The position numbers and the translations under genes are program-made. A stretch of DNA of 64,000 nucleotides from a phage: the sequence record NC_042307.1; one strand, written 5' to 3'. This document shows positions 9,880-56,361 of the stretch, piece by piece. The notes under the pieces are model-generated. The model saw only the letters and a program-made list of their open reading frames with translations, was not told the DNA's origin and did no database searches. Numbering within the stretch: position 1 is the stretch's first letter; every line of letters begins with the position of its first letter.

Positions 9880-9925
9880 AATTTATTTGCTTTCAGGAAA
9901 AATTTTCTGTATAATAGATTCATAA
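9880..9925 (+). promoter_or_regulatory. strong T5 early promoter (PN25-like)
   Basis: aaatttatttgctttcaggaaaaattttctgtataatagattcataaatttgagagaggag; -35 ttgctt 9887-9892, 17-bp spacer, -10 tataat 9910-9915; matches my recollection of the T5 PN25 promoter. Confidence 0.8.
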
Positions 9926-9946
9926 ATTTGAGAGAGGAGTTTAAAT

Positions 9947-11793: not shown

Positions 11794-12102
11794 ATGAGCG
11801 AACAGGTAAATCAAAACTATGAAGGACACGTTGATGACCAGTCCATCATACTTTGGGAGAAGGAGGGGGAACAAGTAAGATTAACAGTATCTGAATTTCG
11901 TGGGAATCTATACATGGGTATTCGTTACTGGCTTCTTGATATTAATGATGAATGGTTTCCAACGAAATCTGGCTTCTCTTTTCCTTACACCCTAGAAACA
12001 ACATCACAGCTTTTCTATGCGTTTACACAGATTCTTAGCGAATCTGAGGTTTTACATGAAGTACAGAAACGAGCTGAAGAACTAAAAGCCAAGAATGCCT
12101 AG
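11794..12102 (+). CDS. hypothetical protein
   Basis: 102-aa ORF; stop lies in loop of downstream terminator. Confidence 0.6.
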   Translation: MSEQVNQNYEGHVDDQSIILWEKEGEQVRLTVSEFRGNLYMGIRYWLLDINDEWFPTKSGFSFPYTLETTSQLFYAFTQILSESEVLHEVQKRAEELKAKNA

Positions 12103-12116
12103 TTCTTGGCTTTTTC
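12088..12116 (+). terminator. rho-independent terminator
   Basis: gccaagaa-tgcctag-ttcttggc followed by ttttt. Confidence 0.6.
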
Positions 12117-12124
12117 TTTATAAA

Positions 12125-12170
12125 TGTATTTGCTTTCAACTCAGTTTTGTTATATAATATTTATATAAAT
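12125..12170 (+). promoter_or_regulatory. T5 early-type promoter
   Basis: ttgctt 12130-12135, 17-bp spacer, tataat 12153-12158, then taaattaatgagag. Confidence 0.6.
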
Positions 12171-12189
12171 TAATGAGAGATATAAATAA

Positions 12190-13240: not shown

Positions 13241-13304
13241 ATTATCATTCAGTTGAGGGATAGAAAGTTATGGCGAGGGTAAGCAAAGTTAGTTAAAATT
13301 GTAG

Positions 13305-13333
13305 TTGCTAAATGCTTAAATACTTGCTATAAT
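13305..13333 (+). promoter_or_regulatory. T5 early-type promoter upstream of ligase C-terminal ORF
   Basis: ttgcta 13305-13310, 17-bp spacer, tataat 13328-13333, then atttatataaattgataagg. Confidence 0.6.
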
Positions 13334-13363
13334 ATTTATATAAATTGATAAGGAAGAAATTTG

Positions 13364-16988: not shown

Positions 16989-17875
16989 GTAGAATAACAG
17001 AGTTACTTGATCTAAAAGGAATTGAGTACAAGGATACAGGCGGGGATATTCTTATATGCTGCCTGAATCCTGAACACGAGGATAAACACCCAAGTTTGCG
17101 TATTGATCCTGAAACCGGGATTATGCACTGCTTGAGTTGCGGTTTTGGCAAAGGTATACCTAGTATTTATCATTATTTTAATGAGACTCAATATAGACAA
17201 TCTCCAAGACTATCCCAAGTACGTAAAAAAATTTCTGAGATTAGAAATGGATCTACGAATCTTGCAATCCCAGAATCTGCTTTTCTTTTTGAAGGTGATT
17301 TCCGAGGTATCAGTTCTAAGACCTTAAAGAAATATTTTGCTTTCCAACACCAAGAGGACTGGGAAGGCAGAATTGTATTCCCAATCACAGATGCTGTTGG
17401 ACGCAATATCCTATTTTTGGGTCGTTCTATAAACAGTTCTGCCCCTCCTAAATACTTAGTAAAACCAAAACAAGTTTCACCGCCAATTTTTCCTGTACGA
17501 TATAATACTCCAGTTCTTATTCTAGTTGAAGGCATCTTTGATATGCTGAACCTAGAGGATAATGGTATAGACTATGCTTCTTGCTGCTTTGGTACACATC
17601 AGTTTACATCTGATAACATTGCTGATAAGTTCAGTCCTTACATTATTGCTGGAGTAAGAGTAGTTGTTATCTTGCTAGATAATGATGCCTCTGGTAATAA
17701 AGCTGCTCAAGCACTAGCGAAGCTAATTCGTACAAAAACACGTTTAACACCTGTAGTTGGTAACTTCCTTCTTCCAGAAGGTAAAGACCCAGGTGATTTA
17801 AATAAAGAAGAGATCGATATGTTGGCTCAACGTATTGAAATTTTAGTTGCCGAATCGCTCAAAGATTTGGTATAA
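16985..17875 (+). CDS. DNA primase (DnaG-like, Zn-finger + Toprim)
   Basis: Zn-binding CLNPEHEDKHPSLRIDPETGIMHCLSCGFGKG; Toprim acidic motifs LVEGIFDM and ILLDNDASGNKAA. Confidence 0.8.
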   Translation: MSRITELLDLKGIEYKDTGGDILICCLNPEHEDKHPSLRIDPETGIMHCLSCGFGKGIPSIYHYFNETQYRQSPRLSQVRKKISEIRNGSTNLAIPESAFLFEGDFRGISSKTLKKYFAFQHQEDWEGRIVFPITDAVGRNILFLGRSINSSAPPKYLVKPKQVSPPIFPVRYNTPVLILVEGIFDMLNLEDNGIDYASCCFGTHQFTSDNIADKFSPYIIAGVRVVVILLDNDASGNKAAQALAKLIRTKTRLTPVVGNFLLPEGKDPGDLNKEEIDMLAQRIEILVAESLKDLV

Positions 17876-17937
17876 TATATTGGTAAGTTAGAGAAGAAAC
17901 ACTGAAGTTATACTTACTTACCAAAAGGAGACTAAAT

Positions 17938-22873: not shown

Positions 22874-22881
22874 AATTGCAT

Positions 22882-22910
22882 TTGGCAACTGCTCATAATT
22901 ATTGTATAAT
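22882..22910 (+). promoter_or_regulatory. T5 early-type promoter (first of tandem pair)
   Basis: ttggca 22882-22887, 17-bp spacer, tataat 22905-22910, then cataaatttgagagag. Confidence 0.55.
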
Positions 22911-22981
22911 ATACACATAAATTTGAGAGAGAAAGTTTCGGATTGATAAGAAAGTCCGAAGCAGAAAAATAAAAATTGTAC

Positions 22982-24174: not shown

Positions 24175-24201
24175 AGGGGAGCTACGGCTCCCTTTCTTTT
24201 T
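24175..24201 (+). terminator. rho-independent terminator
   Basis: gggagc-tacg-gctccc followed by tttcttttt. Confidence 0.6.
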
Positions 24202-25711: not shown

Positions 25712-27530
25712 GACACTAAAATTTAGTAACGTTATGTCTTACGGTAAGGACATCGTAATTCATTTCGATAAGAATCCAGTTACTCAACTAATTGGGGGCA
25801 ATGGGCTAGGGAAGTCCACTATTGCTACGGTTATCGAGGAGTTGTTTTATAACAAGAACTCTCGAGGTATCAAGAAGGATGCATTGTTCTCTTGGAATGC
25901 CCCTAAGAAAGAATACGATATGCACGCTTACTTCTCAAAAGATGAAGATGAGTATGAACTGCATAAAGTAGTTAAATCAACTGCTAAAGTTACACTCATT
26001 AAGAATGGAGAAGATATTAGTGGGCATACGGCAACCCAAACATATAAGATGATTGAAGAGATTATGGGTGGTGACTTTCAAACATTCACCAAACTAATTT
26101 ATCAATCAGTGGGTTCCAACCTAGATTTTCTAAAAGCAACGGATGCAACACGTAAGGCTTTTCTTGTTAACTTGTTCAATCAAGAGCAATACAAAGAAAT
26201 GTCGGAAACTATTAAGGCTGACCGTAAAGAAATAGCAAATACCCTAAATAATTTGCAGGGTCAGATGGCTGTAATTACGAAAATCCTTAATGGGAAAAAT
26301 AATCTAGGAACTTTGCAGGAACCTGTAGAAGTACCGGAGTTTGATGAAGAGCCATTAGCACAAGAACTTACTGAATCGAAAATTAAGGCGGCATTAGCCA
26401 AGTCACAAGAGGCTAATATTACTAAACTCCGTAATTTGGACAAAGCTGTACAAGTTGCCGAACAATCTTTCGAGCCTTTCAAAAATTTCCCTGCGCCCAC
26501 TGACCAATCTGAAGAGATCTCAAGTGTTACGCGTGACTTAACGATTGTTACCTCACGTGCGGGAGAAGTCAAGAAACGTTATCAGAAGTTTAAGCAAGAG
26601 GCTTCAAATACTGAATGTCCTACTTGTGGTACGCATCTTGATACAACTGCTGCTCAAAAAGCAATGGATATGGCTAGAACAGAATATGATCCTCTGTTTA
26701 AAGAGAAACAATCTCTCGAAGCTACATTGGAGCAGTTAAAGAAAGAACAACTCGAGTACGCTGCGTATACTAGAGCTAAGGATGCTTTAGATAAGGCAGT
26801 AGCAGCTAGAGACGAGTTCAAAAATTCAATGAGTGATGCTTCTTTTGAAGAACTCAATGTGCAAATCCTACAGGTGCAAATACGACAATTAGAACAGGAA
26901 ATCGCTGATGGACGTTCTAAAGTTGCAATTGCCAAAGAGCATAATGCAAATGTCGAATTAGCCAATGCAAAATATAAAGCAAAGCTAGAACAGATTGAGA
27001 AAGCAGAAGCAGAAATGACTGAGATTACTTCCAAACTTGATGGAGTAGCCGAAGCTGTAGCTGATCTTGATATTCTGATCGCTGCATTGAAAAATCTGGT
27101 AGGATATAAACTAGAGCATAGTGTGAAAGTATTTGAGGAATTGATTAATAAATATCTTTCTATTATGACTGGTGGTAAGTTCGCACTTGGATTTGAACTT
27201 GATGAAACTAAATTACAAGTAGTAATCTTCAATGATGGAAACCGTACCAGTATGGAGAACTGCTCTACTGGTCAGCAAAGTAGAATTAACCTAGCAACTC
27301 TGTTAGCAATTCGAATGCTGTTAACATCTATTAGTAAAGTTAATATTAATCTTCTGTTCCTTGACGAAGTTATTAGCTTTATTGATACGAAAGGACTTGA
27401 TACTCTCGTTGAATTATTAAATGAGGAAGATAGTCTGAATTCTATCATTGTTTCTCATGGGCACTCCCATCCGCTGGCACATAAGATTACTGTCAAAAAA
27501 GATGCAGAAGGATTTTCCTATTTAGAATAA
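25692..27530 (+). CDS. Rad50/SbcC-like ATPase (T5 D13-like)
   Basis: Walker A GGNGLGKST, long coiled-coil, zinc-hook CPTCG, D-loop/Walker B LLFLDEVISFID; start set at ATG 25692. Confidence 0.8.
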   Translation: MSKITIKTLKFSNVMSYGKDIVIHFDKNPVTQLIGGNGLGKSTIATVIEELFYNKNSRGIKKDALFSWNAPKKEYDMHAYFSKDEDEYELHKVVKSTAKVTLIKNGEDISGHTATQTYKMIEEIMGGDFQTFTKLIYQSVGSNLDFLKATDATRKAFLVNLFNQEQYKEMSETIKADRKEIANTLNNLQGQMAVITKILNGKNNLGTLQEPVEVPEFDEEPLAQELTESKIKAALAKSQEANITKLRNLDKAVQVAEQSFEPFKNFPAPTDQSEEISSVTRDLTIVTSRAGEVKKRYQKFKQEASNTECPTCGTHLDTTAAQKAMDMARTEYDPLFKEKQSLEATLEQLKKEQLEYAAYTRAKDALDKAVAARDEFKNSMSDASFEELNVQILQVQIRQLEQEIADGRSKVAIAKEHNANVELANAKYKAKLEQIEKAEAEMTEITSKLDGVAEAVADLDILIAALKNLVGYKLEHSVKVFEELINKYLSIMTGGKFALGFELDETKLQVVIFNDGNRTSMENCSTGQQSRINLATLLAIRMLLTSISKVNINLLFLDEVISFIDTKGLDTLVELLNEEDSLNSIIVSHGHSHPLAHKITVKKDAEGFSYLE

Positions 27531-30447: not shown

Positions 30448-32715
30448 TTAAGGAAGGTCTTGATTTGGAGCGGGGTCTTCAGGTAGAGTGGTTGGTTTAT
30501 CTTCTAACAAAGACTCTAACTTACTGACACGGGCGCTTAGCACCTGGATAGCAGCAAGCGCATCCAGTAACAGCACGTTAGTATCAAGCGAAAGAATTGT
30601 ATTTCCCTCCTTGTCCTCGCTTGAGTGTGTGTATTCAGGGTCTATGGTTGCCGCTTGCTGTGCAATGATTCCACGACGTACCCGACGCTTTATATCATCT
30701 TTGAAGATAAACGTCACGAGCTCTAACTGATTGATGTTGTTTAACGCACTCTTACCGTCCCATGGCTCAACCTGTTCTTTATAATCAATGTCGCTTGTAG
30801 GATCCAGCGTTACTCGCCCAATACGAGTACTATCAATCCATACATCGACTCCCGGATTTTCCCACGAGAAAGAATAGCTATTTGCTTGGAAATTACCACC
30901 AATACCTCTACGGCAAATGACACCTGCCGAGGGTAAGAGAGTTGTTAAGCGAGTAGCATCGTAGGTATCTAAAACAGATCGTGCAGTTCCATCGTAAAAA
31001 TCTACACGAGCGGCGTACTGTGTCACCTGCCCCGCCCCATAACTCAACTCCATGTTACCGGACGCCTCTCCTGGCGCACCTGTGTTACGACTAATAATCA
31101 GGCTTCTAATATTAGACATTTCGCCAAAGTCGCTAAAAAGATACTCCCAGCTTTCACCGGACACTCGAGTAGGCTTAATGCAGGCATATGTGACGCTTCC
31201 TACTGTGTGGTTTACGTAAAAATCAGCAGTCGCCGTTCCGATACCATAGCCTTCTACAATTGATCGCCACGACCAACCCAAAATTTGACCTGTTGAGCCA
31301 GCAGGATAATAATGTTTAGTAGCAATCATGGCGGTCGCAGTGTCACCACCTTTGGACAGCGCCCCGATGTTGTTGCGAGCACCCTCTGCGTCCCAAGCTC
31401 CAGTGCCGCCCTGTCCTACTCCTAAAGGTTTAAATACATTACTAGTATCGTCATAGACACCCCAAGACCCTGTATCCATTACAACTAAGTTGTAGCGGTT
31501 TGTCGGGTCATAAATGCGGGAACTATCAGCGCTCTGTTTAAGACGATCCACACTTAGGTTTATACGAGCCTGTACCTTGTCACTTAAGTCTGCAAGGTTC
31601 TGATCCTTTAACAAAGATATGCTCAAAGTTTGTTCAGCTTTGTTTGCTGCGGTCTCAGCTCGAGTTGCGGAACTGGATGCTGCTACGGCTTGTTCTCCTG
31701 CGGTTGTAGCGCTTCCAGCCGCGGCTGTAGCCTGTTCTGTAGCCGTTACTGCCTTTTGTCCAGCTAAGGTGGCAGCGTCTTCCGCAGCTTGTTTTAACGG
31801 GGTGATTTCAGCAATTGCGTTTGCCTTAGCTGTGTCAATTGCTCCTACTGCGTCCGTCTTAGCTGCTCCAATCTCTGTCGCCGCACCTTCTTTAATGGTC
31901 TGAGTGTCCGCTTTAAGCTGTTCAACATCGGACTTAAGACCCTGTATTGTGGTCATAGCTTGCGTAGCTATGTTCGCGCTATCTGATGCACCTTGCTGAG
32001 CTAGCTTAGCAGCGTCTTCACTAGCTTTTGAGTTAATTTCGCTAGTCTTTGTATTAGTTTCTGAGTTTTTTGCTGCTAATGCTGATGTGGAGGCTTGTGC
32101 AGCGAATGCTTCTGCTTCATCCCTGAATCCTTTGGAGTCAGAAGCAGAGGCAGCGGAATCAGCAGCATTAGTCTCGCTAGTTTTTGCTGCTGCTGCATAT
32201 GCTGCTGCATTAGTCTCGCTAGTTTTTGCGTTAGTCTCACTAGTTTTTGCATTAGTCTCACTAGTTTTTGCTGCAGCTGATGATTCTAGAGCGTTAGTTT
32301 CACTAGTTTTTGCTGCAGCTGATGATTCTGCAGCTTTAGTAGCGGACGCAGCAGATTGAGAAGCAGAAATAGCAGAGGCATCGGCACTATCTTTAGATAA
32401 ACCAGCTTGTCTCTCCGCTTCAGTAGCAGAAGTAGCAGATTGAGTTGCAGAAGCTTCTGAAGAGTTAGCATAATTTGCAGATAGGTTCTCAGAGTCCTTA
32501 GCATTTATTTCAGATTCTTTTGCTGCAATTTCAGAATCTTTTGCAGCCGCAGCAGACTTAGCTGCTGCCTCAATAGAAGATACTAACTCACTTGCAGTAA
32601 TAGAGCTAATAGAATTACCTAGAGTTACTGTATATCTAGGAAACTTACTAGCAGTAGCTTTAGTATCGTCAATATTTAATATCTGTTGTACAATAATTTT
32701 AGTAGTTACTGACAT
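30448..32715 (-). CDS. L-shaped tail fibre protein with C-terminal intramolecular chaperone (peptidase S74-like) domain
   Basis: 755 aa; Ala/Ser/Thr-rich N-terminal repeats (AKTSETNA); C-terminal SDIDYKEQVEP...RGIIAQQAATIDPEYT...KLESLLEDK matches the auto-cleaving chaperone domain of endosialidases and T5 pb1. Confidence 0.8.
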   Translation of the reverse strand: MSVTTKIIVQQILNIDDTKATASKFPRYTVTLGNSISSITASELVSSIEAAAKSAAAAKDSEIAAKESEINAKDSENLSANYANSSEASATQSATSATEAERQAGLSKDSADASAISASQSAASATKAAESSAAAKTSETNALESSAAAKTSETNAKTSETNAKTSETNAAAYAAAAKTSETNAADSAASASDSKGFRDEAEAFAAQASTSALAAKNSETNTKTSEINSKASEDAAKLAQQGASDSANIATQAMTTIQGLKSDVEQLKADTQTIKEGAATEIGAAKTDAVGAIDTAKANAIAEITPLKQAAEDAATLAGQKAVTATEQATAAAGSATTAGEQAVAASSSATRAETAANKAEQTLSISLLKDQNLADLSDKVQARINLSVDRLKQSADSSRIYDPTNRYNLVVMDTGSWGVYDDTSNVFKPLGVGQGGTGAWDAEGARNNIGALSKGGDTATAMIATKHYYPAGSTGQILGWSWRSIVEGYGIGTATADFYVNHTVGSVTYACIKPTRVSGESWEYLFSDFGEMSNIRSLIISRNTGAPGEASGNMELSYGAGQVTQYAARVDFYDGTARSVLDTYDATRLTTLLPSAGVICRRGIGGNFQANSYSFSWENPGVDVWIDSTRIGRVTLDPTSDIDYKEQVEPWDGKSALNNINQLELVTFIFKDDIKRRVRRGIIAQQAATIDPEYTHSSEDKEGNTILSLDTNVLLLDALAAIQVLSARVSKLESLLEDKPTTLPEDPAPNQDLP
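32160..32330. repeat. imperfect tandem repeats of a ~24-nt unit (gcattagtctcgctagtttttgc) inside the tail fibre gene
   Basis: At least five copies visible between 32160 and 32330; encode AKTSETNA-type repeats on the minus strand. Confidence 0.7.
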
Positions 32716-38661: not shown

Positions 38662-38736
38662 AGTTAATTTCTCCTCTTAGATACAATTATTATAATAGTA
38701 TTAGAAAATTTTATCAAGAAATTTTTATTTTTCCAT

Positions 38737-38765
38737 AAAGAAAAGGAGGACTCAAAGTCCTCCTC
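38737..38765 (-). terminator. possible intra-operon terminator/attenuator between tape-measure and Dit genes
   Basis: aggaggact-caa-agtcctcct hairpin followed on minus strand by ttttcttt. Confidence 0.35.
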
Positions 38766-38770
38766 CAGTT

Positions 38771-41700: not shown

Positions 41701-42451
41701 TAGCTTCTTCAAAGGAAATAGCGTACCCGGCTGCTTCTTGTAGGGATCTAGCAAGGGACTGAACAGGAGTACCTGTCTGAGTACCCACTATAACACCAAA
41801 TTTTTCTAGACGATTTAGCTGATCACCTAGTTTAAGTTGTTCGAATGCAGATTGCAAAACGAAGATGTTGGAAGCAAGAGCTGCATACATAATAGGTAAA
41901 CTACCACCGATCTTAGCCATTGCTGCAAAGTCACGGGTAGCCCCACGTGCCGAACCAGAAGTATTACCAATAGCTCTAGAAGCTCTACCAGCAGCACCAG
42001 TAGTATCATTAAAGCCTTTAGCCGTACCTCCTAAAGCCCTATTAGTGTCGTATAACCTATCTTGAACTTTCTCTGTTGCAGCTGCAACATCATTGCCCAT
42101 TGTTTTAACAGATCTAGAAACTCCATCGAATCCAACTTCTAGCTTATCAGCTACCTCGATCATTGTAATAGCAAGGTCGTCCAGCTTAGCTCCTATATCA
42201 TTAATAGATTTAGTAACACTAAGCATACCCCTACTAGCCTGCATTTTAGTAAGACTTTTTGCTGCTCTATCTGCTGCCCTCTCAATGGAGTATAGAGTTT
42301 TGGGCATTTTACCTAACTGTTCATTCGTTAGCTCAGAAGCCGCAGCAGCATTCTCTAATGCATCAGATACGTTTTCAATAGACTTTGCAGTACGAGTTGC
42401 CCCCTTCTGTTTAACGTCTATTAGTAATTCTCGTATTAGCTTATCAGTCAT
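38771..42451 (-). CDS. tail tape-measure protein (T5 pb2-like)
   Basis: 1226 aa, extensive coiled-coil, C-terminal hydrophobic segment (IIIQTAVAVMQAATAVPYPFSIPLMVAAGLAGALALAQ); downstream of chaperone pair. Confidence 0.8.
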   Translation of the reverse strand: MTDKLIRELLIDVKQKGATRTAKSIENVSDALENAAAASELTNEQLGKMPKTLYSIERAADRAAKSLTKMQASRGMLSVTKSINDIGAKLDDLAITMIEVADKLEVGFDGVSRSVKTMGNDVAAATEKVQDRLYDTNRALGGTAKGFNDTTGAAGRASRAIGNTSGSARGATRDFAAMAKIGGSLPIMYAALASNIFVLQSAFEQLKLGDQLNRLEKFGVIVGTQTGTPVQSLARSLQEAAGYAISFEEAMRQASSASAYGFDAEQLNKFGLVARRAAAVLGVDMTDALNRVIKGVSKQEIELLDELGVTIRLNDAYADYVKQLNAANTGITYNINSLTTFQKQQAYANAVIAESTKRFGYLDEVLRATPWEQFAANADAALRKIQQAAAKYLGPVIDAINTVFYTSQASVSAEAARAQEKTNRQIDPTNVGAVALSLAASEEGYNKALDMYKESLDKRNKLKSEFDKRMEQADFYTRLAIRQVGEGIPVGLAAAGASEANKKFVEETAAMGLQVTRLGKEVEDSTENLNAWKSAYQAAGAAAAKANPEFQKQINLQRDTTDPGAVYDFNSTVLKGLTEQQKAYNQTKKTASDLANDIQNVAQNTDTAAKTSATLADAIKNIESLSQGTGKSADEYVKNLNLGYNTLSEMKTASQALSEYVKLTGNETKNQLAVHQKIADVYNQTKDKEKAQEAGRRLELQQLEEQEAALRRVLQTNQGNKAVEKEIEKIQLEKLKLTNQGMEAQKKVKDYTDKILGVDREIALLNDRTMTTTQYRLAQLKLELTVEKEKYEWYTKQADKQKEAEQSRRAQAQISRELWEAEKQATASHVSALMDALEVSQTQRNVTGQAQILTERLSVLQEQLELSKGNTEEEIKYRNEIYKTAAALEQLRKQREGQMQQQVGSSVGAVYTPTTGLSGEDKDFADMQNRMASYDQAISKLSELNSEATAVAQSMGNLTNAMIQFSQGSLDTTSLIASGMQTVSSMIQYSTSQQVSAIDAAIAAEQKRDGKSEASKAKLKKLEAEKLKIQQDAAKKQIIIQTAVAVMQAATAVPYPFSIPLMVAAGLAGALALAQASSASSMSSIADSGADTTSYLTLGERQKNIDVSMSANAGELSYVRGDQGIGNANSFVPRAEGGNMYPGVSYQMGEHGTEVITPMIPMKATPNDELKNSSNSTSGRPIILNISAMDAASFREFASSNSGALRDAVELALNENGASLKTLGNS

Positions 42452-42465
42452 ATTTTATTTTTCCC

Positions 42466-42498
42466 AATAAAAAGGCTCTGGGCATATCACCCAGAGCC
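42466..42498 (-). terminator. rho-independent terminator directly upstream of tape-measure start
   Basis: ggctctggg-catatca-cccagagcc followed on minus strand by tttttattgggaaaaataaaatATG. Confidence 0.6.
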
Positions 42499-42534
42499 AA
42501 GCCTCATCGTGGAACGCCCCATTGGAGGAAACTT

Positions 42535-42903
42535 TTACCGTGCACGAGATCTAGCATGTGGCTTAACGTTAGGTATTCTACCGTTTTGCGGCTTATGCTT
42601 CTCAGCACGTTTACGTGCAGCGTCTACAGCTTTAGCATCAAATATATTGATGATGTGTAGAACAAATTCTTTTTCTATAGGATCGGTAATCCCATAAATA
42701 TCGAATAAAACACCTAGGGCAGCCTTGTCTTTACCTATAAAGATAGGGAAGTCACCAGGTATGAAACAGTCAACTAGACTATTATAAATATTCATACTAA
42801 TAGCTACAATAGGTGGAAAATCTTCAAGTTCAACAGGCATAGCCTTAGGATCAGGTTCTATACCCATTGACTCACAAAGTATTAAATATTGTTGTTTAGT
42901 CAT
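42535..42903 (-). CDS. tail assembly chaperone, downstream ORF (candidate T-like extension)
   Basis: 122 aa; no Shine-Dalgarno upstream of ATG; frame stays open upstream into the end of the preceding ORF (42968-42990). Confidence 0.45.
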   Translation of the reverse strand: MTKQQYLILCESMGIEPDPKAMPVELEDFPPIVAISMNIYNSLVDCFIPGDFPIFIGKDKAALGVLFDIYGITDPIEKEFVLHIINIFDAKAVDAARKRAEKHKPQNGRIPNVKPHARSRAR

Positions 42904-42964
42904 TTTAGATGCTGAGCTTTTAATACACTTATCTGCAAAATCAGCAACAGCATCTAGTAGTTCT

Positions 42965-43369
42965 TTACGCTTTTGAGCTACGAAAAGTGTCTAAGTGGAA
43001 CACTGTCTGGTTGATCCAAGAATCAAACGCAGCAGAGTTCTGCATAAGCATTACAGCATTATCACGACTAAATGAAACTTCAGTAGCAGGATCAGCATCT
43101 GTTTCAATCAGCATCAGTTTTTCAACATCGCCTACAGTCAAACCAGTCCAACCTTTAATCGCAGCATCAACGAAAGCCTCAATAAACTTATCGTCATCCT
43201 GTACTTGAATTAGAGTACCATTAACCCATTCATCGCGTTTGGCAGAAGAGACAACACGCTTAGAAGTAGCACGAGACATGTAGTTAAGCTCTAGCTTAAA
43301 GTTTGGCATACCTGGGTATGAAAGAGTAATAGTACGGGTATCAAGAGTAATATCTTTTAAGTTAATCAT
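42965..43369 (-). CDS. tail assembly chaperone, upstream ORF (G-like)
   Basis: Start moved to ATG 43367-43369 (GGAGA RBS 8 nt upstream); position immediately upstream of tape-measure gene. Confidence 0.5.
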   Translation of the reverse strand: MINLKDITLDTRTITLSYPGMPNFKLELNYMSRATSKRVVSSAKRDEWVNGTLIQVQDDDKFIEAFVDAAIKGWTGLTVGDVEKLMLIETDADPATEVSFSRDNAVMLMQNSAAFDSWINQTVFHLDTFRSSKA

Positions 43370-44264
43370 TTTTAATTTCTCCAAAGAAATCTATTCTCAC
43401 AGGGTCTGAAGAAGCAGTAGGTATAATATCCCACTCAACTTTATACACATCTGAGAAATTTAGGCGTTTTGTAATACGTGCTAAAGGAAAATCTATAGAA
43501 ATATTATTATTTCTTATATTTAAAGGTACATCGGTTTCTGGTTCAATATTGTAAACCATATCTCCAGCAAAACGTTTTAAGTAATATAGAGAAATGGTTG
43601 CTGAAGCATTCATTTCATTTACATAGGCTCTTTTATTATTATAGACTTTATTTATATCAAAAACACTCTTATCTTCTCTCCAAGAGCATTGCTGTTGAAA
43701 AGATAAAGAAGCGGAAATAAGACCAGGTAAGATGCTACCGTTAGTAGAAACTATTACCGGGCTATAAGACATTGCTTCACCCTGTATAATAGAAGCTGCT
43801 TCTCTATATGTAGATACTTCGGAGAATTTCCCTGATTCGATACCAACGTTAAGAATTGGTATATTCTTATCCAAAGAAAAATCTACAGTAGATACATAGC
43901 AGTTCTCAAAATATACACAGTTATTATCTTTATTTACTATATAGATATTAAACATAATAGGTTCAATATTGTTACTATATAGTGGTAGTAAGAAAGTATT
44001 ACCTTTTCTATCAAAACCTAGCCATTCAAAAAAGTTAGCTTCAGTAAGTGTATTACTAAAATTTATTGCTAATGATATGGAAGAAGGAGTTTGAGCATTT
44101 ATAATAGAGTCTGCATAGTTAGTTCTACGATGAATAGTCCTACGAAGAGTCTTAAATTCTTCGTAGGAGGTTTGTACATCATAGTTTGTTAGGGCATCAA
44201 AATGAAATGCCCTACCATCATACTCAACTAAAACTTTTGACTCTCGCATTAGAGAGTAGTACAT
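43362..44264 (-). CDS. tail protein (T5 p140-like by size and position)
   Basis: 300 aa between tail tube gene and chaperone genes. Confidence 0.45.
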   Translation of the reverse strand: MYYSLMRESKVLVEYDGRAFHFDALTNYDVQTSYEEFKTLRRTIHRRTNYADSIINAQTPSSISLAINFSNTLTEANFFEWLGFDRKGNTFLLPLYSNNIEPIMFNIYIVNKDNNCVYFENCYVSTVDFSLDKNIPILNVGIESGKFSEVSTYREAASIIQGEAMSYSPVIVSTNGSILPGLISASLSFQQQCSWREDKSVFDINKVYNNKRAYVNEMNASATISLYYLKRFAGDMVYNIEPETDVPLNIRNNNISIDFPLARITKRLNFSDVYKVEWDIIPTASSDPVRIDFFGEIKND

Positions 44265-44268
44265 TTAT

Positions 44269-45675
44269 TTAACCACCAGCACTAACTGTGATAGTTTTAG
44301 TACCTTCTACACCAGAACCGTCTTTAGCTACAGCCTTCACAGTAACTTCACCAGTTCTAGAAGCATCGGCTGTTAATAGTCCAGATTCGGCATCAATCGT
44401 AGCGGCGTCACCACTAGAGATAGACCAAGTCACAGCCTTATTAGTAGCTTCTGGAGGTGTTACCTCAACAGACATCTGTAAAGTATTACTATTTGTTACA
44501 GAAGTAGCATCAGCAGCAGATTTAACTGTGATTGATTCGACTAGTTTTGGTGGAGTTTTAGCACCATCCCCCGTAGCAATCAGATTAGCCACAGTAGTTT
44601 TTGTATACTTGTTAGAAAATCCAAGATAACCTTCGTCACCAGTATCCAAATCTGTAGGAATAGCCTTAAACTCTACTGAAGTACCAAGTACATCATCAGT
44701 CTCAATAGTAGGAATGTTAACGTGTGCCTGTTTAGCAACTAACACAGCTGCCGGACGTTCATCATCATATTCACCACCGAGGATAAGTGCGATTTCAAAA
44801 CGGTTAACTACCTTAAGGGTTTTAATTAGATCTTTATATAATTCCATAGATCCTAGAGCTTTATCGTTAAGGTATGCCGTTAGAGAACCCGTTAACTCAA
44901 ATGCACCTGTAAATGAGCCAATTGAAATATTTACACGTGACATAATATCCGGGGTTAGGTACGTGATGTTGTTATTAATGGTAAAAGTACCACCAGTAAT
45001 AGGAATATCATATGCCTTATCAGAATCCATATCCTTAATTTTCAGGATAGTTAACTTGTTCTTAATGTAAGAACTCTGAATAGTCATATAGGTTTCATCA
45101 TCAATACCTAATGCATCCGGATCAAATGGTTGCGCATCCAGAGGAATAAGCTGATTACCATTACCAGACCAAGTTACACGACCAATATCCTCAATATCAA
45201 CGTTAACTTCTGCCTGATTAATCTGACAGGAATCGATATAACTCCATGCTTTATCAGTCAGAATATAAATATGTAACATTGCTAACTCATGATAAGAGTT
45301 ATCTTTAAAGTTAACCATGAAGTTAGCTTCATTATTATGCGCACCTGTGTCTCCCTCAAGGTTTAATGCTTTACCACTAGAAAGAGCGTGCCATAACATA
45401 TAGTCAGGAACAATCTGTTTGTTAGTAGTTTTATCTTTATATGGCAGGATATAAGTAGAGAAACTCCACTCAGCCGCGTTTAAAGAGTCATTAAAACGTT
45501 TAGAACCACGAGTTGGACGCGGACCAGCTTCATTAACAGTAATATCTGTTGAGTTACTGTCCTGACCCCAAGAAATATCATCCTGAACTAGAATCTCTTG
45601 CGTGTTGGTCTTATCATGACCAGTCTTAACCGTAGACACGAAGATTCGAGTATTACGTAATAGTTGTAAAGACAT
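44269..45675 (-). CDS. major tail tube protein with C-terminal Ig-like (Big_2-type) domain (T5 pb6-like)
   Basis: 468 aa; C-terminal AVTWSISSGDAATIDAESGLLTADASRTGEVTVKAVAKDGSGVEGTKTITV typical of Big_2 decoration domains. Confidence 0.75.
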   Translation of the reverse strand: MSLQLLRNTRIFVSTVKTGHDKTNTQEILVQDDISWGQDSNSTDITVNEAGPRPTRGSKRFNDSLNAAEWSFSTYILPYKDKTTNKQIVPDYMLWHALSSGKALNLEGDTGAHNNEANFMVNFKDNSYHELAMLHIYILTDKAWSYIDSCQINQAEVNVDIEDIGRVTWSGNGNQLIPLDAQPFDPDALGIDDETYMTIQSSYIKNKLTILKIKDMDSDKAYDIPITGGTFTINNNITYLTPDIMSRVNISIGSFTGAFELTGSLTAYLNDKALGSMELYKDLIKTLKVVNRFEIALILGGEYDDERPAAVLVAKQAHVNIPTIETDDVLGTSVEFKAIPTDLDTGDEGYLGFSNKYTKTTVANLIATGDGAKTPPKLVESITVKSAADATSVTNSNTLQMSVEVTPPEATNKAVTWSISSGDAATIDAESGLLTADASRTGEVTVKAVAKDGSGVEGTKTITVSAGG

Positions 45676-45701
45676 TTAATTATTTTCTCCTAATCTGTAA
45701 C

Positions 45702-46187
45702 TTATCTGCGAAGTGACCTACGTGGAGGCTGATACCTCACTGTTACATTTATTTCTGCTAAACCATATGGGGCCAGTAGACCCTCATCTGTACTAACTGA
45801 TGTAATGCTCATATCAGTCGCCTCACATGGGAAGGTCGATCCATTAGGTTTACTAACAGTATATTCTAAATTTCCACCTGTGTCAATAACGGTTTTTATA
45901 TCCGCTACGAGTTTTTCAAGTTGCTCTTGAATGTCTGTTTTCTCTTTATCGTACACCAGGATTGGAAGTTCTAAAAACATCCACTGTTGACCTGAAGGAA
46001 GATACTGCCCAGTTTCAGTTCCGATATGAACTGCAACATAAGGAAACTCTCGTATCTCCTCAAACTTATAAGTTTGACGTGAGACGTTTCCATACAAGTT
46101 ATTAAAATATTCATCTGGTCGGGAGCCATCCATTTGTTTGGCTATTCGATCAACCAGAGCTTGTGCTATACTTGTTCTGTGATCCAT
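45702..46187 (-). CDS. tail terminator-like protein
   Basis: 161 aa directly upstream of tail tube gene; synteny only. Confidence 0.4.
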   Translation of the reverse strand: MDHRTSIAQALVDRIAKQMDGSRPDEYFNNLYGNVSRQTYKFEEIREFPYVAVHIGTETGQYLPSGQQWMFLELPILVYDKEKTDIQEQLEKLVADIKTVIDTGGNLEYTVSKPNGSTFPCEATDMSITSVSTDEGLLAPYGLAEINVTVRYQPPRRSLRR

Positions 46188-46190
46188 TTA

Positions 46191-46958
46191 TTAGGTTCCT
46201 TGATTAACCTTAATTTTGTATCTGGAGTGAATTAAGTCTCTTGCAGCTTTAGCTATAGCCTCTCCAATTAGTCTTTGAGGGTTTCTAGCACCTGGGTAGG
46301 GTCGTAATGACAATCTTCGATATGTAGATACTGCAGGATTAAATACTGAATATGGACGTACCATATAATTATATGTAACATTTAATTCAGGAGCACCTTT
46401 GCTAGTTCCAGCATCTCTAAGCATAACATCTTTAACTTTTAGAGAATTTGCAAAACGACCTGTTCTAAATTTAAGTGGAGCTCCTGCTTTTTTCATATCC
46501 TTTATTAAGTATTCTTTAGCAACCAACTCCAGAATAACCTTCATATTACTGTTTGATACAAAACGACCAGAAGCACCTGTTACTGCGCCGGAATACCCAC
46601 CCTCAACATCACTAGGATCACCAAAGTTTACCTGTACCCTACCAGTAGAACGTTTTTTACCTACAGAGGATTTTTTACCAGCGGTTGCTTGAATAAGGCT
46701 TTCTAAAGCCCCTAAGTCTCCTGTTAGATCTAAGCTAGAAGATACAGCTTTTAGAATAGAAGCGGTCCTAACATTAAGGAGATCTTGGGATACAGGTTTT
46801 GAGAACTTAAAAGATACCTGAGCAACAGTACCATCCCTAGTAGGATCTTTTAGTCCTGTTTCAATAGAATATACAACAGTATTCTTATTGTTCTCGGAAC
46901 GCCCAACATTATCTAGCTGCTCCTTAATAATTTGTGTAGCTAAGTCAGAAAGAGACAT
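46191..46958 (-). CDS. head-tail joining / tail completion protein (hypothetical)
   Basis: 255 aa in neck-gene position; synteny only. Confidence 0.4.
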   Translation of the reverse strand: MSLSDLATQIIKEQLDNVGRSENNKNTVVYSIETGLKDPTRDGTVAQVSFKFSKPVSQDLLNVRTASILKAVSSSLDLTGDLGALESLIQATAGKKSSVGKKRSTGRVQVNFGDPSDVEGGYSGAVTGASGRFVSNSNMKVILELVAKEYLIKDMKKAGAPLKFRTGRFANSLKVKDVMLRDAGTSKGAPELNVTYNYMVRPYSVFNPAVSTYRRLSLRPYPGARNPQRLIGEAIAKAARDLIHSRYKIKVNQGT

Positions 46959-47470
46959 TATACTCTCCTGTAAACTTCAATAATAGTACGAATATGCTCT
47001 GGAATACCAGACTTAGTATTATTAAAAGTAACTGTTTCTCCGCCAATTGTTTTAGCTTGACGGTAATCCTGTTTATGCCAATGATCTACTAGCATACATG
47101 CTGCAAGTTTGAGATCCTCAGGTATTGGATTAAATCCACCTTGTGTGTATTCTACATCCATATAACCTTCCGGAGGATTAAATTTAAGAAGTATAACCCC
47201 ATCAGAGTACAACTTATACTGTTCGGGATCTATCTCCTTATCATTAATAGTCATTTTGGTTACTGAAGTAGCTGAGGGAGAACTTAAAAAGTATTTTTTA
47301 CGAGTAGGTTTTGTATTGATTAACTGGTCTACCGCATCAGCATCATCCATACCTAAAAGGCTAGTAATCAGCGCATTGGCAGCAGTAATCATCATCTCTA
47401 TTCCAGATTCTAGTTCAGGTCGTTTTAAACCACCGTATAATCTATAGTCTTCAGCTGTGATTATTTGCAT
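46958..47470 (-). CDS. head completion / adaptor-like protein (hypothetical)
   Basis: 170 aa; ATG preceded by conserved tttttattgggaaaaataa element. Confidence 0.4.
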   Translation of the reverse strand: MQIITAEDYRLYGGLKRPELESGIEMMITAANALITSLLGMDDADAVDQLINTKPTRKKYFLSSPSATSVTKMTINDKEIDPEQYKLYSDGVILLKFNPPEGYMDVEYTQGGFNPIPEDLKLAACMLVDHWHKQDYRQAKTIGGETVTFNNTKSGIPEHIRTIIEVYRRV

Positions 47471-47482
47471 TTATTTTTCCCA

Positions 47483-47510
47483 ATAAAAAAGGAGAGCCGA
47501 AGCTCTCCTT
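47483..47510 (-). terminator. rho-independent terminator downstream of major capsid gene
   Basis: aaggagagc-cgaa-gctctcctt followed on minus strand by ttttttattggg. Confidence 0.65.
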
Positions 47511-47529
47511 ATCGGCTGAAAAGCCTGTA

Positions 47530-48906
47530 TTAAGCGGTAGCGTAAGCACCGGATACAACACCATTACTAAAGTAACGTTGCAGGTTAACACGCTGAGTAA
47601 CGTAGTATGCATCACGCTGTTTACCAGCTTGGCGCTCACGTTCAACAGTAACAGCACGCTGACGTGGCATTACGAAGTTATCTTTATAAACAATAACTGC
47701 GAACTCTTTCTCAGCTGCTTTAGCTGGGAAGTACTCAGAAACCACAACCGGCAGACCATAAATACGACCAACCTGACCTTGCAGTTTAACAGCATCGTTA
47801 CCAACCTGTGCAACATCCTGCCATTCTTCATCTTCCAGAAGATCATAGTAAGCATCCATAGATACGATAAGTACCAGTTTGCTCAGTTTCAGACCATGAC
47901 GGCCCAGTTTACGACGCAGTTTAGAGATAGTTTTAGCAGTTACCAGAACAGAACCATCAGCTTTAGCTTCAGTAGTAACTTTAGCACCATCATCTTCAGC
48001 CAGTTTCAACAGACCTTTCGGCTTACCAGTACCATCACCAGTCATAAAAGCTTCTTCGATAGAAACAGCGTGTGCTTCAATCAGACGCTTACGCAGCAGC
48101 GGCAGCAGGGAGAAGATTGCATCTTCTTCAGTTTCATCAGTAATGAAGGACTTAGCAGCCAGTTTGTAAGTACTGAAGTGAATTTCTTTAAGAGCACCTT
48201 TAACTTCATCACCGGTAGTAGTATCAGTACCATAAGTAGAAGCAGCAACCCAAGTAGCTTTACCAGCATCCGGTTCAACCAGCATAGTAAGAATCTTACT
48301 GGACATCGGCAGTTCTTCAAACAGTGCGCCAACTACCAGCTCTTTCTGCAGGTCACGGATAATACGCTGAGAGAAAATAGTTTCATAGCTTTCACTAGAA
48401 ACTTCTACAGAAGAAGACTGATTCACTGCTTTCAGGTGTTTTTGACCGTGTTCGGTTTCGAATACACCTTTTTCCATTACGTAAGACAACAGAACCAGTT
48501 TTTCTACTTCGTCTTCAAAGTTTTCCTGAGTACCATACAGTGCTTTAGCAACACTATCACCAACGAAGGAACGACCTTCACGAGCTGTTAGCAGAGATTT
48601 AATTTCGTCCTGAAGACCAACAATAGTTTCCTGTTGTTTTTCTACAGTTTGTGCAAACAGTTCTGCGCTCTTCTTAGATTTCTCATCCAGAGACTTAACC
48701 AAATCCAGAGCCTCTTCCAGACGCTTACGGTCTTCACCAACAGCTTTAGAAACTAGGTCATTCATACGAGCCAGTTCTTTTTCTTCCTGCTCTTTACGCA
48801 TACGTTCAGCTTCCTGAGCTTTCTGAGCAGCGGTCAGACCTTCCAGAGATTTAGCCAGATCACCCAGACCAAGTTCTTCTTTCAGCTTATTAATATCAAT
48901 AGTCAT
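47530..48906 (-). CDS. major capsid protein precursor with N-terminal scaffold-like delta domain (T5 pb8-like)
   Basis: 458 aa; N-terminal ~150 aa coiled-coil (EELGLGDLAKSLEGLTAAQKAQEAERMRKEQEEKELARM); strong RBS; upstream of protease gene. Confidence 0.8.
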   Translation of the reverse strand: MTIDINKLKEELGLGDLAKSLEGLTAAQKAQEAERMRKEQEEKELARMNDLVSKAVGEDRKRLEEALDLVKSLDEKSKKSAELFAQTVEKQQETIVGLQDEIKSLLTAREGRSFVGDSVAKALYGTQENFEDEVEKLVLLSYVMEKGVFETEHGQKHLKAVNQSSSVEVSSESYETIFSQRIIRDLQKELVVGALFEELPMSSKILTMLVEPDAGKATWVAASTYGTDTTTGDEVKGALKEIHFSTYKLAAKSFITDETEEDAIFSLLPLLRKRLIEAHAVSIEEAFMTGDGTGKPKGLLKLAEDDGAKVTTEAKADGSVLVTAKTISKLRRKLGRHGLKLSKLVLIVSMDAYYDLLEDEEWQDVAQVGNDAVKLQGQVGRIYGLPVVVSEYFPAKAAEKEFAVIVYKDNFVMPRQRAVTVERERQAGKQRDAYYVTQRVNLQRYFSNGVVSGAYATA

Positions 48907-56239: not shown

Positions 56240-56257
56240 AAAATCTCAAAATTTCAC

Positions 56258-56290
56258 TTGTCAACAAGTCTTTATTTTTATATAATATAA
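56258..56290 (+). promoter_or_regulatory. sigma70 promoter (TTGTCA-17-TATAAT) driving plus-strand cassette
   Basis: ttgtca 56258-56263, 17-bp spacer, tataat 56281-56286. Confidence 0.6.
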
Positions 56291-56361
56291 GTATAAATTA
56301 AAAAGGCATCCAAGTAAACAAATTTTTTTATTTTCTGGATGGGTCACTGGTAGCAAACACT

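Follow-up and report, generated by a model that had tools for sequence, protein, structure and literature searches.

Late structural genes and the repeated 19-mer

This analysis concerns two intergenic cassettes among the late genes of a phage, located within a stretch of 64,000 nucleotides (nt) of sequence record NC_042307.1 (hereafter, the window). The window phage is T5-like (Tequintavirus), and the region is ~95% identical to Tequintavirus genomes, including ESCO40, HdH2, and DT57C. Its late structural genes are encoded on the minus strand and are arranged in transcription order as the major capsid gene (pb8), site B, the head-completion gene, two neck/tail genes, the tail tube gene, the minor tail protein gene, two chaperone open reading frames (ORFs), site A, the tape measure gene (pb2), site C, and the distal tail and baseplate genes. 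At sites A and B, a hairpin is followed by the same 19-nt sequence and by the start codon of the next gene (Table 1).

Table 1. Features of the window at and around sites A, B, and C, together with other promoters and terminators mentioned in the text.
Feature	Position	Strand	Remarks
Major capsid gene pb8	47530-48906	-	First in transcription order, followed by site B
Capsid stop codon	47532-47530	-	Stem of site B begins 19 nt later
Small hairpin GGC-N6-GCC	47514-47525	-	From folding; follows the capsid stop codon and precedes terminator B
Site B terminator hairpin, AAGGAGAGC-UUCG-GCUCUCCUU (GGAGAGC-UUCG-GCUCUCC)	47489-47510	-	-14.5 kcal/mol; follows the major capsid gene
Site B 19-mer	47471-47489	-	U-tract tail UUUUUAUU, Shine–Dalgarno (SD) sequence GGGA (47481-47478), spacer AAAAUAA; the ATG follows
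Head-completion gene, 170 amino acids (aa)	46958-47470	-	ATG 47470-47468; Pfam HCP, E = 1.7e-80
Late promoter PJ5, TTGACA-17-TATACT	45858-45886	-	Sigma-70, 11/12 matches; T5 annotation; located between sites B and A, within the gene of the tail terminator protein
Tail-assembly chaperone stop codon	42537-42535	-	Stem of site A begins 36 nt later
Conserved non-coding block AAGUUUCCUCCAAUGGGGCGUUCCACGAUGAGGCUU	42499-42534	-	After the chaperone stop codon and upstream of terminator A; complementary to the U-tract and SD in this lineage
Site A terminator hairpin, GGCUCUGGG-UGAUAUG-CCCAGAGCC	42474-42498	-	-19.1 kcal/mol; follows the tail-assembly chaperone gene
Site A 19-mer	42455-42473	-	U-tract tail, SD GGGA (42465-42462), A-rich spacer; AAU and then the ATG follow
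Tape measure gene pb2, 1226 aa	38771-42451	-	ATG 42451-42449; between sites A and C
Site C, pb2 terminator GGAGGAGGAC-UUU-GAGUCCUCC and degenerate motif copy UUUUCUUUAUGGAAAAAUAAAAAU	38721-38766	-	Grouped with site A by the repeat finder
Late promoter PG25, TTGATA-17-TATAAT	38689-38717	-	Sigma-70, 11/12 matches; T5 annotation; drives the genes downstream of pb2
Terminator with UUCG loop	30416-30443	-	Symmetric A4/U5 frame; end of a late tail-fibre gene; only the UUUUUAU tail in common with the motif
Early-type promoter family (53 nt)	2148-2200, 9882-9934, 12125-12177, 13300-13352, 17843-17895, 22877-22929, 56253-56305

The 19-mer (TTTTTATTGGGAAAAATAA on the minus strand) is present in exactly two exact copies, and the exact repeat measures 20 nt (42454-42473 and 47470-47489 on the plus strand). 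The original prediction had reported an identical sequence at two minus-strand sites, which was borne out; its interval for site B (47471-47489) was precise, whereas that for site A (42452-42472) was off by 1-3 nt. It had further described the sequence as lying just 3′ of a strong GC hairpin and before the ATG of the tape measure and head-completion genes, and both statements were confirmed. The 19-mer begins at the foot of the hairpin at both sites and ends 0 nt before the ATG at site B and 3 nt before it at site A, where AAU separates it from the start codon of pb2.

Of 100 simulations of the window with a first-order Markov model, two contained an exact direct repeat of 19 nt, and three or more matches to the 19-mer at up to three mismatches were obtained in none of 100 dinucleotide shuffles. 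The window contains only five exact direct repeats of at least 19 nt in total. Three of these five are supplied by 42-nt tandem repeats (GCATTAGTCTCGCTAGTTTTTGC...) at 32051-32355, within a 755-aa late gene (30448-32715) of the tail-fibre region. The 15-mer core of the motif was found only at sites A and B in complete T5-like genomes; it also occurs, by chance, in many unrelated AT-rich viral contigs. A match with three mismatches (TCCTTAATGGGAAAAATAA) at 26284-26302 on the plus strand is located inside a 639-aa early ORF and was judged fortuitous. A genome-wide motif search placed the 19-mer only at the two post-terminator starts among ~25 late genes, and the notion of a general late-gene start signal was abandoned on this account.

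The 19-mer is a composite of the terminator U-tract tail, a weak SD sequence, and an A-rich spacer and not a single element. Because the two sites change independently from genome to genome, the identity of their copies in this genome reflects parallel constraint and not ongoing copying between them. Formation of a hairpin by the 19-mer itself (UUUAUU/AAUAAA with a GGGAAA loop) was rejected, as the isolated fold has 0 kcal/mol and the inverted repeat is not kept in relatives. Coding across the cassettes (a hidden ORF or frameshift read-through) was also rejected; the frame that ends in the UAA preceding each ATG is open, but close relatives differ by 1-nt indels (GGG or GGGG at site A, and T-runs of variable length), which exclude it.

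Terminator hairpins

Both hairpins are located downstream of a stop codon in the orientation of the preceding gene and have the attributes of intrinsic terminators, namely a GC-rich stem-loop, pairing that is kept in relatives, and, on the transcribed strand, a U-rich tract that begins at the base of the stem (UUUUUAUU for site A, UUUUUUAUU for site B). The stem of site A comprises 11 base pairs (bp), seven of them GC pairs, and that of site B comprises 9 bp with a UUCG loop. The tail UUUU(U/C)UUUAU is common to other terminators of the window (12085-12113 on the plus strand; 30443-30416 and 38766-38742 on the minus strand), and A and B are the only strong terminators of the window that run straight into an ATG. 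The CGAA tetraloop ascribed earlier to the hairpins at site B and at the end of the tail-fibre gene applies to the plus-strand reading only; on the transcribed minus strand, both loops (47501-47498 and that of the 30443-30416 hairpin) read UUCG and are closed by C-G.

The two loci are annotated as putative rho-independent terminators in T5 (AY543070: 96553-96587 and 101563-101586) and HdH2, and terminators are also annotated in AKFV33, HASG4, Sepoy, Sealy, and Shiner. The annotation covers site A in T5, HdH2, and Sealy and site B in T5, HdH2, AKFV33, Sepoy, and Sealy, and the CPT records (Sepoy and Sealy) mark the following ribosome-binding site (RBS) as well. The annotated terminators of T5, HdH2, AKFV33, Sepoy, and Sealy correspond to ours in locus, in hairpin (identical in sequence at site B), and in their place after the chaperone and major head genes; these annotations carry no comment on the common downstream sequence.

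At site A, changes on both sides of the pair (compensatory changes) were observed in 7 of 15 predicted pairs (11 in the stem and four in a long-range UUCC/GGAA helix). The stem variants include GGCCUAGGG/CCCUAGGCC in Klebsiella phages and GCUCUAGGCG/CGUCUAGAGC in Proteus phages. The stem of site B is identical in sequence in the Klebsiella, Pectobacterium, Proteus, and Providencia relatives, and other perfect stems are present in four Vibrio phages. The small hairpin upstream of terminator B keeps its GGC/GCC stem across genera with a variable loop. Rfam covariance models gave no match at E ≤ 5 near either site (29000-57000 searched).

The exact hairpin GGAGAGC-UUCG-GCUCUCC with a U-run was also observed in at least 12 unrelated viral contig families (e.g., L039, L041, L052, L054, and L065) with different flanks, and this recurrence looks like convergence of different phages on a generic strong terminator. 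The site B hairpin was considered as a signature of the Demerecviridae and rejected, as many viral contigs that are unrelated and differ in their flanks contain the exact 23-mer. The downstream sequence AUUGGGAAAAAUAA is confined to T5 relatives.

A further terminator-like hairpin (GGGGAGC-UACG-GCUCCC followed by UUUCUUUUU) was observed at 24175-24194 on the plus strand, 12 nt before the ATG (24207) of a 176-aa ORF, with no recognisable SD sequence between the hairpin and this ATG. The start of the 176-aa ORF may be mis-called, or the arrangement may resemble that of sites A and B.

Translation start regions

The GGGAAAAATAA part of the repeat had been proposed as an unusual ribosome-binding context. 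The ribosome-binding role is upheld by the placement of GGGA and by canonical SD sequences in relatives, and the site is weak rather than unusual. GGGA provides a purine core at the ~5-10 nt spacing of an SD sequence, and the SD character is kept in relatives; at site A, 10 nt separate GGGA from the ATG (7 nt in Epseptimavirus), and at site B, the separation is 7 nt. The duplex of GGGA with the 3′ end of 16S rRNA has -4.2 kcal/mol at both sites. The median is -1.7 for random 17-mers and -6.1 for the 45 window genes compared, and GGGA ranks in the bottom quarter of these genes. The spacer AAAAUAA ends in UAA, and the context "...AAUAA AUG" is common to several other late genes.

The decisive evidence for reading GGGA as an SD sequence is that relatives hold canonical SD sequences at the same position. 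GGAGG, AGGAG, GGAG, GAGGU, AGGUGA, and AGGA were found at the orthologous positions in JSF10, 70E37-4, PVo5, Chazly21, DU_PP_V, Proteus phage 1, DT571/2, and the metagenomic contig L247 (Table 2).

Table 2. Sequence following the UUUUUUAUU tail in each relative.
Relative	Site B	Site A
Vibrio phage JSF10	GGAGGUAAUAAA-AUG	AGGAGAAAAC...
Vibrio phage 70E37-4	AGGAGGUAAGAA-AUG	Different hairpin, GGAAAUUUAAA-AUG; no equivalent
Vibrio phages PVo5 and Chazly21	GGGGAA...	GGAGAAAACA-AUG
Pectobacterium phage DU_PP_V	AGAGGUAUAUA-AUG	UUGGAAAAAUU-AUG
Proteus phage 1	UUGGGUAAAAUAA-AUG	AGGUGAAAUUCAU-AUG
DT571/2-type	UUAGGAAAAAUAA-AUG	As in the window
Metagenomic contig L247 (stretch fetched covers site A only)		GGAGAAAAG-AUG

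Promoters and site C

A sigma-70 consensus scan returned no site overlapping 42440-42500 or 47460-47515. By manual inspection, TTTATT, TATTGG, and TAAAAT were present at sites A and B, none of them with a usable partner. The late promoter element suggested for the repeat was discarded, as neither approach yielded a fitting -35/-10 arrangement at either site. For the same reason, only one half of the proposed terminator-plus-reinitiation cassette was retained, that is, a terminator followed by a translation start region, and reinitiation of transcription was not. No promoter was found between terminator B and the head-completion gene, nor between terminator A and the tape measure gene. The late genes of T5 are transcribed by the host sigma-70 RNA polymerase, and its late promoters PJ5 and PG25, validated by primer extension, are canonical sigma-70 promoters (PMC7472727).

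At site C, which is annotated in T5 as a terminator with the promoter P-G25, the A-rich part of the motif can have another role as a promoter upstream region; T5 promoters have been described as having an AT-rich -43 region (PMC3326045), to which this part corresponds. Sigma-70 promoters follow the terminator of site C as well as the early-region terminators at 2118 and 12085. In promoter-coupled terminators (Fletcher et al., bioRxiv 10.64898/2026.08.19.745784), the -10 element comes right after the T-tract, and this arrangement is absent from sites A and B, which have no -10/-35 elements. Site C is similar to them in its order of terminator, A-rich block, and PG25, but its promoter is adjacent (~24 nt) and does not overlap. 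Seven 53-nt early-type promoter regions (TTGCTT...TATAAT...ATAAATT) were also observed in the window, several of them directly after terminators.

Conservation of the cassettes and the site A leader

In the enterobacterial lineages, the site B cassette is 75-100% identical compared with 56-91% for the 150-nt coding flanks, and the site A cassette is 72-92% identical compared with 54-86%. Of four Vibrio phages in the comparison, three likewise showed higher conservation at site A than in the flanks. The higher conservation of the cassettes relative to the flanking coding sequences indicates purifying selection.

The block that separates terminator A from the chaperone stop codon is conserved among Demerecviridae ranging from E. 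coli phages to Vibrio phages, though the chaperone protein is only ~38% identical. It is regarded as non-coding because 1-nt indels occur among relatives, and it had no Rfam match. Minimum-free-energy folds pair this block with the U-tract and the SD sequence. The duplex between the block and the downstream segment has -9.7 kcal/mol, with p ~0.005 against shuffles in Tequintavirus and Epseptimavirus and p = 0.015-0.066 in the Providencia, Pectobacterium, and Klebsiella phages. The SD sequence of site A is predicted to be mostly paired (probability of being unpaired of 0.27 in the window and 0.26-0.45 over 10 genomes), and that of site B is predicted to be mostly open (0.84 in the window and 0.75-0.89 in four of six genomes). 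According to these folds, masking of the SD sequence at site A through pairing of the UUCCACGAUGAGG block with the UUAUUGGGAA segment is plausible but unproven. A 43-kb contig (L109) that fitted the pattern of the site A block was rejected as a GC-rich chance match.

The ~85-nt leader between the chaperone and tape measure genes (42534-42452), which comprises the pyrimidine-rich block UUCCUCC...GGGCGUUCCACGA, the terminator, and the SD sequence, might be a family-wide, uncatalogued cis-regulatory RNA of the Demerecviridae that sets the tape measure dose independently of transcription, and we put this forward only tentatively. The UUCCUCC...GGGCGUUCCACGA block is retained from E. coli to Vibrio phages. 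Such a leader may switch between the stand-alone hairpin and an extended helix engulfing the U-tract and the SD sequence, or it may be bound by a phage protein, and a comparable constraint on the exact sequence could hold for the near-invariant cassette of site B. The conserved tape measure leader is thus far a candidate for a dedicated translational control element, and a cheaply testable one.

Mobile genes at the cassettes

In T5, the gene T5.141 (250 aa, with a CapR homology domain and a treble-clef zinc finger; 15778-16530 of L002) is inserted in site A right after UUUUUUAUU. From its sequence, T5.141 is a putative homing-endonuclease-like gene. It replaced the RBS half of site A, and T5 therefore has only one full copy of the 19-mer and no motif upstream of pb2, which is coupled to T5.141 through ...CAGGAAAACAUUAG-AUG. 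The 19-mer is dispensable for pb2 in T5. A related CapR-domain gene is located between the capsid stop codon and the small hairpin of site B in JLBYU43 (JLBYU43_173, 7114-7683 of L033), L018, L020, and L025. Both intergenic cassettes appear to be insertion hot spots.

In all four Vibrio Demerecviridae examined, a gene of ~245-253 aa, with no assigned function, was observed between the chaperone and tape measure genes (2150-2905 of L035, 6931-7689 of L127, 6927-7688 of L128, and 6879-7616 of L129). It is this gene, and not the tape measure gene, that the site A cassette leads into in these phages. The copy in JSF10 (251 aa) gave no Pfam match, and the possibility that it shares an ancestral gene with T5.141 was rejected, as no similarity was found.

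Interpretation and alternative explanations

The most probable explanation, to which we assign a probability of roughly 0.8, is that sites A and B are leaky internal terminators that run into weak RBSs and thereby lower the production of low-copy proteins encoded downstream of high-copy ones. Intrinsic terminators would act inside the late structural cluster, one after the major capsid gene and one after the tail-tube/chaperone block, and RNA escaping termination would continue straight into the region where translation of the next gene begins. Because they have no promoter of their own, we infer that the tape measure gene, the head-completion gene, and the two genes that follow the latter depend on partial read-through. 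The terminator and the weak SD sequence would then lower the output of the head-completion and tape measure genes relative to the upstream capsid and tail tube genes, and at site A, the upstream block may pair with the U-tract and the SD sequence in the read-through RNA and further lower tape measure translation. In the T5 virion, the capsid and tail-tube proteins are present in hundreds of copies, and the head-completion and tape measure proteins in about a dozen or fewer. These copy numbers match a dosage-lowering role, by which the cassettes would tune the stoichiometry of the virion proteins.

Several observations weigh against this explanation. The degenerate copy UUUUCUUUAUGGAAAAAUAAAAAU at site C adjoins no start codon and is located just upstream of the -35 element of PG25. 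At site B, a 49-nt stretch is identical between the window and Providencia phage PSTCR5 except for a 1-nt indel, although the head-completion proteins are only ~29% identical, and such nucleotide invariance is stronger than a terminator and an RBS would normally require. The duplex formed by the site A block is not significant in the Proteus or Vibrio phages, and in RNAalifold predictions, the UUCC/GGAA helix is retained but mostly invariant, with little covariation. We found no published mapping of transcript 3′ or 5′ ends (Term-seq or rapid amplification of cDNA ends) in late infection by T5-like phages, and we infer termination efficiency and read-through from the sequence.

The AU-rich single-stranded segment beside the hairpin might alternatively be a site of RNA processing or stability (e.g., RNase E entry or cleavage), which would separate hairpin-protected upstream mRNA from less stable downstream mRNA. 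AU-rich unpaired RNA does follow a stable stem directly, the conservation exceeds that expected of an RBS alone, and such a site would be compatible with leaky termination rather than exclusive of it. Still, this role is unlikely, since relatives have canonical SD sequences in place of the G cluster, a change that speaks for ribosome binding more than for a nuclease site, and no Rfam family matched. The cassettes might also be targets of a sequence-specific protein, either as a translational operator for a phage regulator or as recognition sites of the CapR-domain homing-endonuclease-like genes inserted here, in which case repeated homing or gene conversion would keep them uniform across genera. 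The insertion of T5.141 exactly within the site A motif, after TTTTTTATT, would fit this idea, as would the related CapR-domain gene adjoining the site B cassette in the four genomes named above, the invariance of site B without covariation among enterobacterial genera, and the stronger conservation of the cassettes than of the flanking coding sequences. The two sites, however, drift independently between genomes with no sign of concerted evolution, and the exact site B hairpin, present in at least 12 unrelated phage contexts, is reachable by convergence on a strong terminator, which makes a protein target quite improbable.

A role of the motif in restarting transcription right after the stop, whether as a late promoter or within a promoter-coupled terminator, is very improbable. 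At either site, no -10 element (A at -11 and T at -7) comes after the T-tract and no -35 element stands at 16-18 bp, in agreement with the empty scan; the ATG is located 0-3 nt past the motif, which would leave RNA initiated there without the RBS or the start codon; the T5 late promoters validated by primer extension are of the canonical sigma-70 type; and pb2 is expressed in T5 without the motif. These points stand against the terminator-promoter order of site C, where the AT-rich upstream region resembles the motif, the early-region terminators of the window that precede promoters, and the coupling of promoters and terminators described as widespread in bacteria. An origin of the repeat by chance in AT-rich sequence has a negligible probability. 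The scattered occurrences of the 15-mer core and the fortuitous match in the early ORF illustrate what such sequence can yield, but the repeat was hardly or never reached in the simulations and shuffles, and both copies occupy the same functional position and are conserved across genera, which effectively refutes this explanation.

Relation to known systems

The leaky-terminator explanation has well-known counterparts at the level of translation and transcription. SD sites with an A-rich spacer are known, and SD sequestration by cis-pairing represents translational attenuation by mRNA structure. The cassettes share with them the purine core at 7-10 nt from the AUG and, at site A, an upstream pyrimidine-rich block that can pair with the SD sequence. 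Unlike typical SD sequestration, the SD sequence of site A is weak (GGGA), the masking helix would enclose the whole terminator hairpin, and covariation is limited. Internal operon terminators that set the ratios of gene products include T7 T-phi after the major capsid gene 10 and those of E. coli rplL-rpoB and rpsU-dnaG. The cassettes resemble these in having a strong hairpin and a U-tract after a highly expressed gene, followed by promoterless genes that would depend on read-through. T7 T-phi acts on T7 RNA polymerase, whereas the late genes here are transcribed by the host sigma-70 RNA polymerase (PMC7472727).

Reference genomes already carry the feature as an annotation, and it works in the manner of classic internal operon terminators. 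Through such leaky internal terminators, the late structural genes of T5-like phages would be split into dosage classes. Beyond good annotation, the finding matters little; the cassettes are compact and highly conserved terminator-plus-RBS parts that mark the insertion points of mobile endonuclease-type genes, which is useful for the engineering of T5-like phages.

Chaperone ORFs upstream of site A

The 122-aa chaperone ORF that precedes site A (42535-42903 on the minus strand) was observed to lack an SD sequence (-0.1 kcal/mol), and its frame is open upstream. This frame overlaps the end of the 139-aa ORF (42965-43384) in the +1 frame (region 42880-43030 on the minus strand). The arrangement suggests that the 122-aa chaperone ORF is a G/GT-type programmed frameshift product and not an independent gene.

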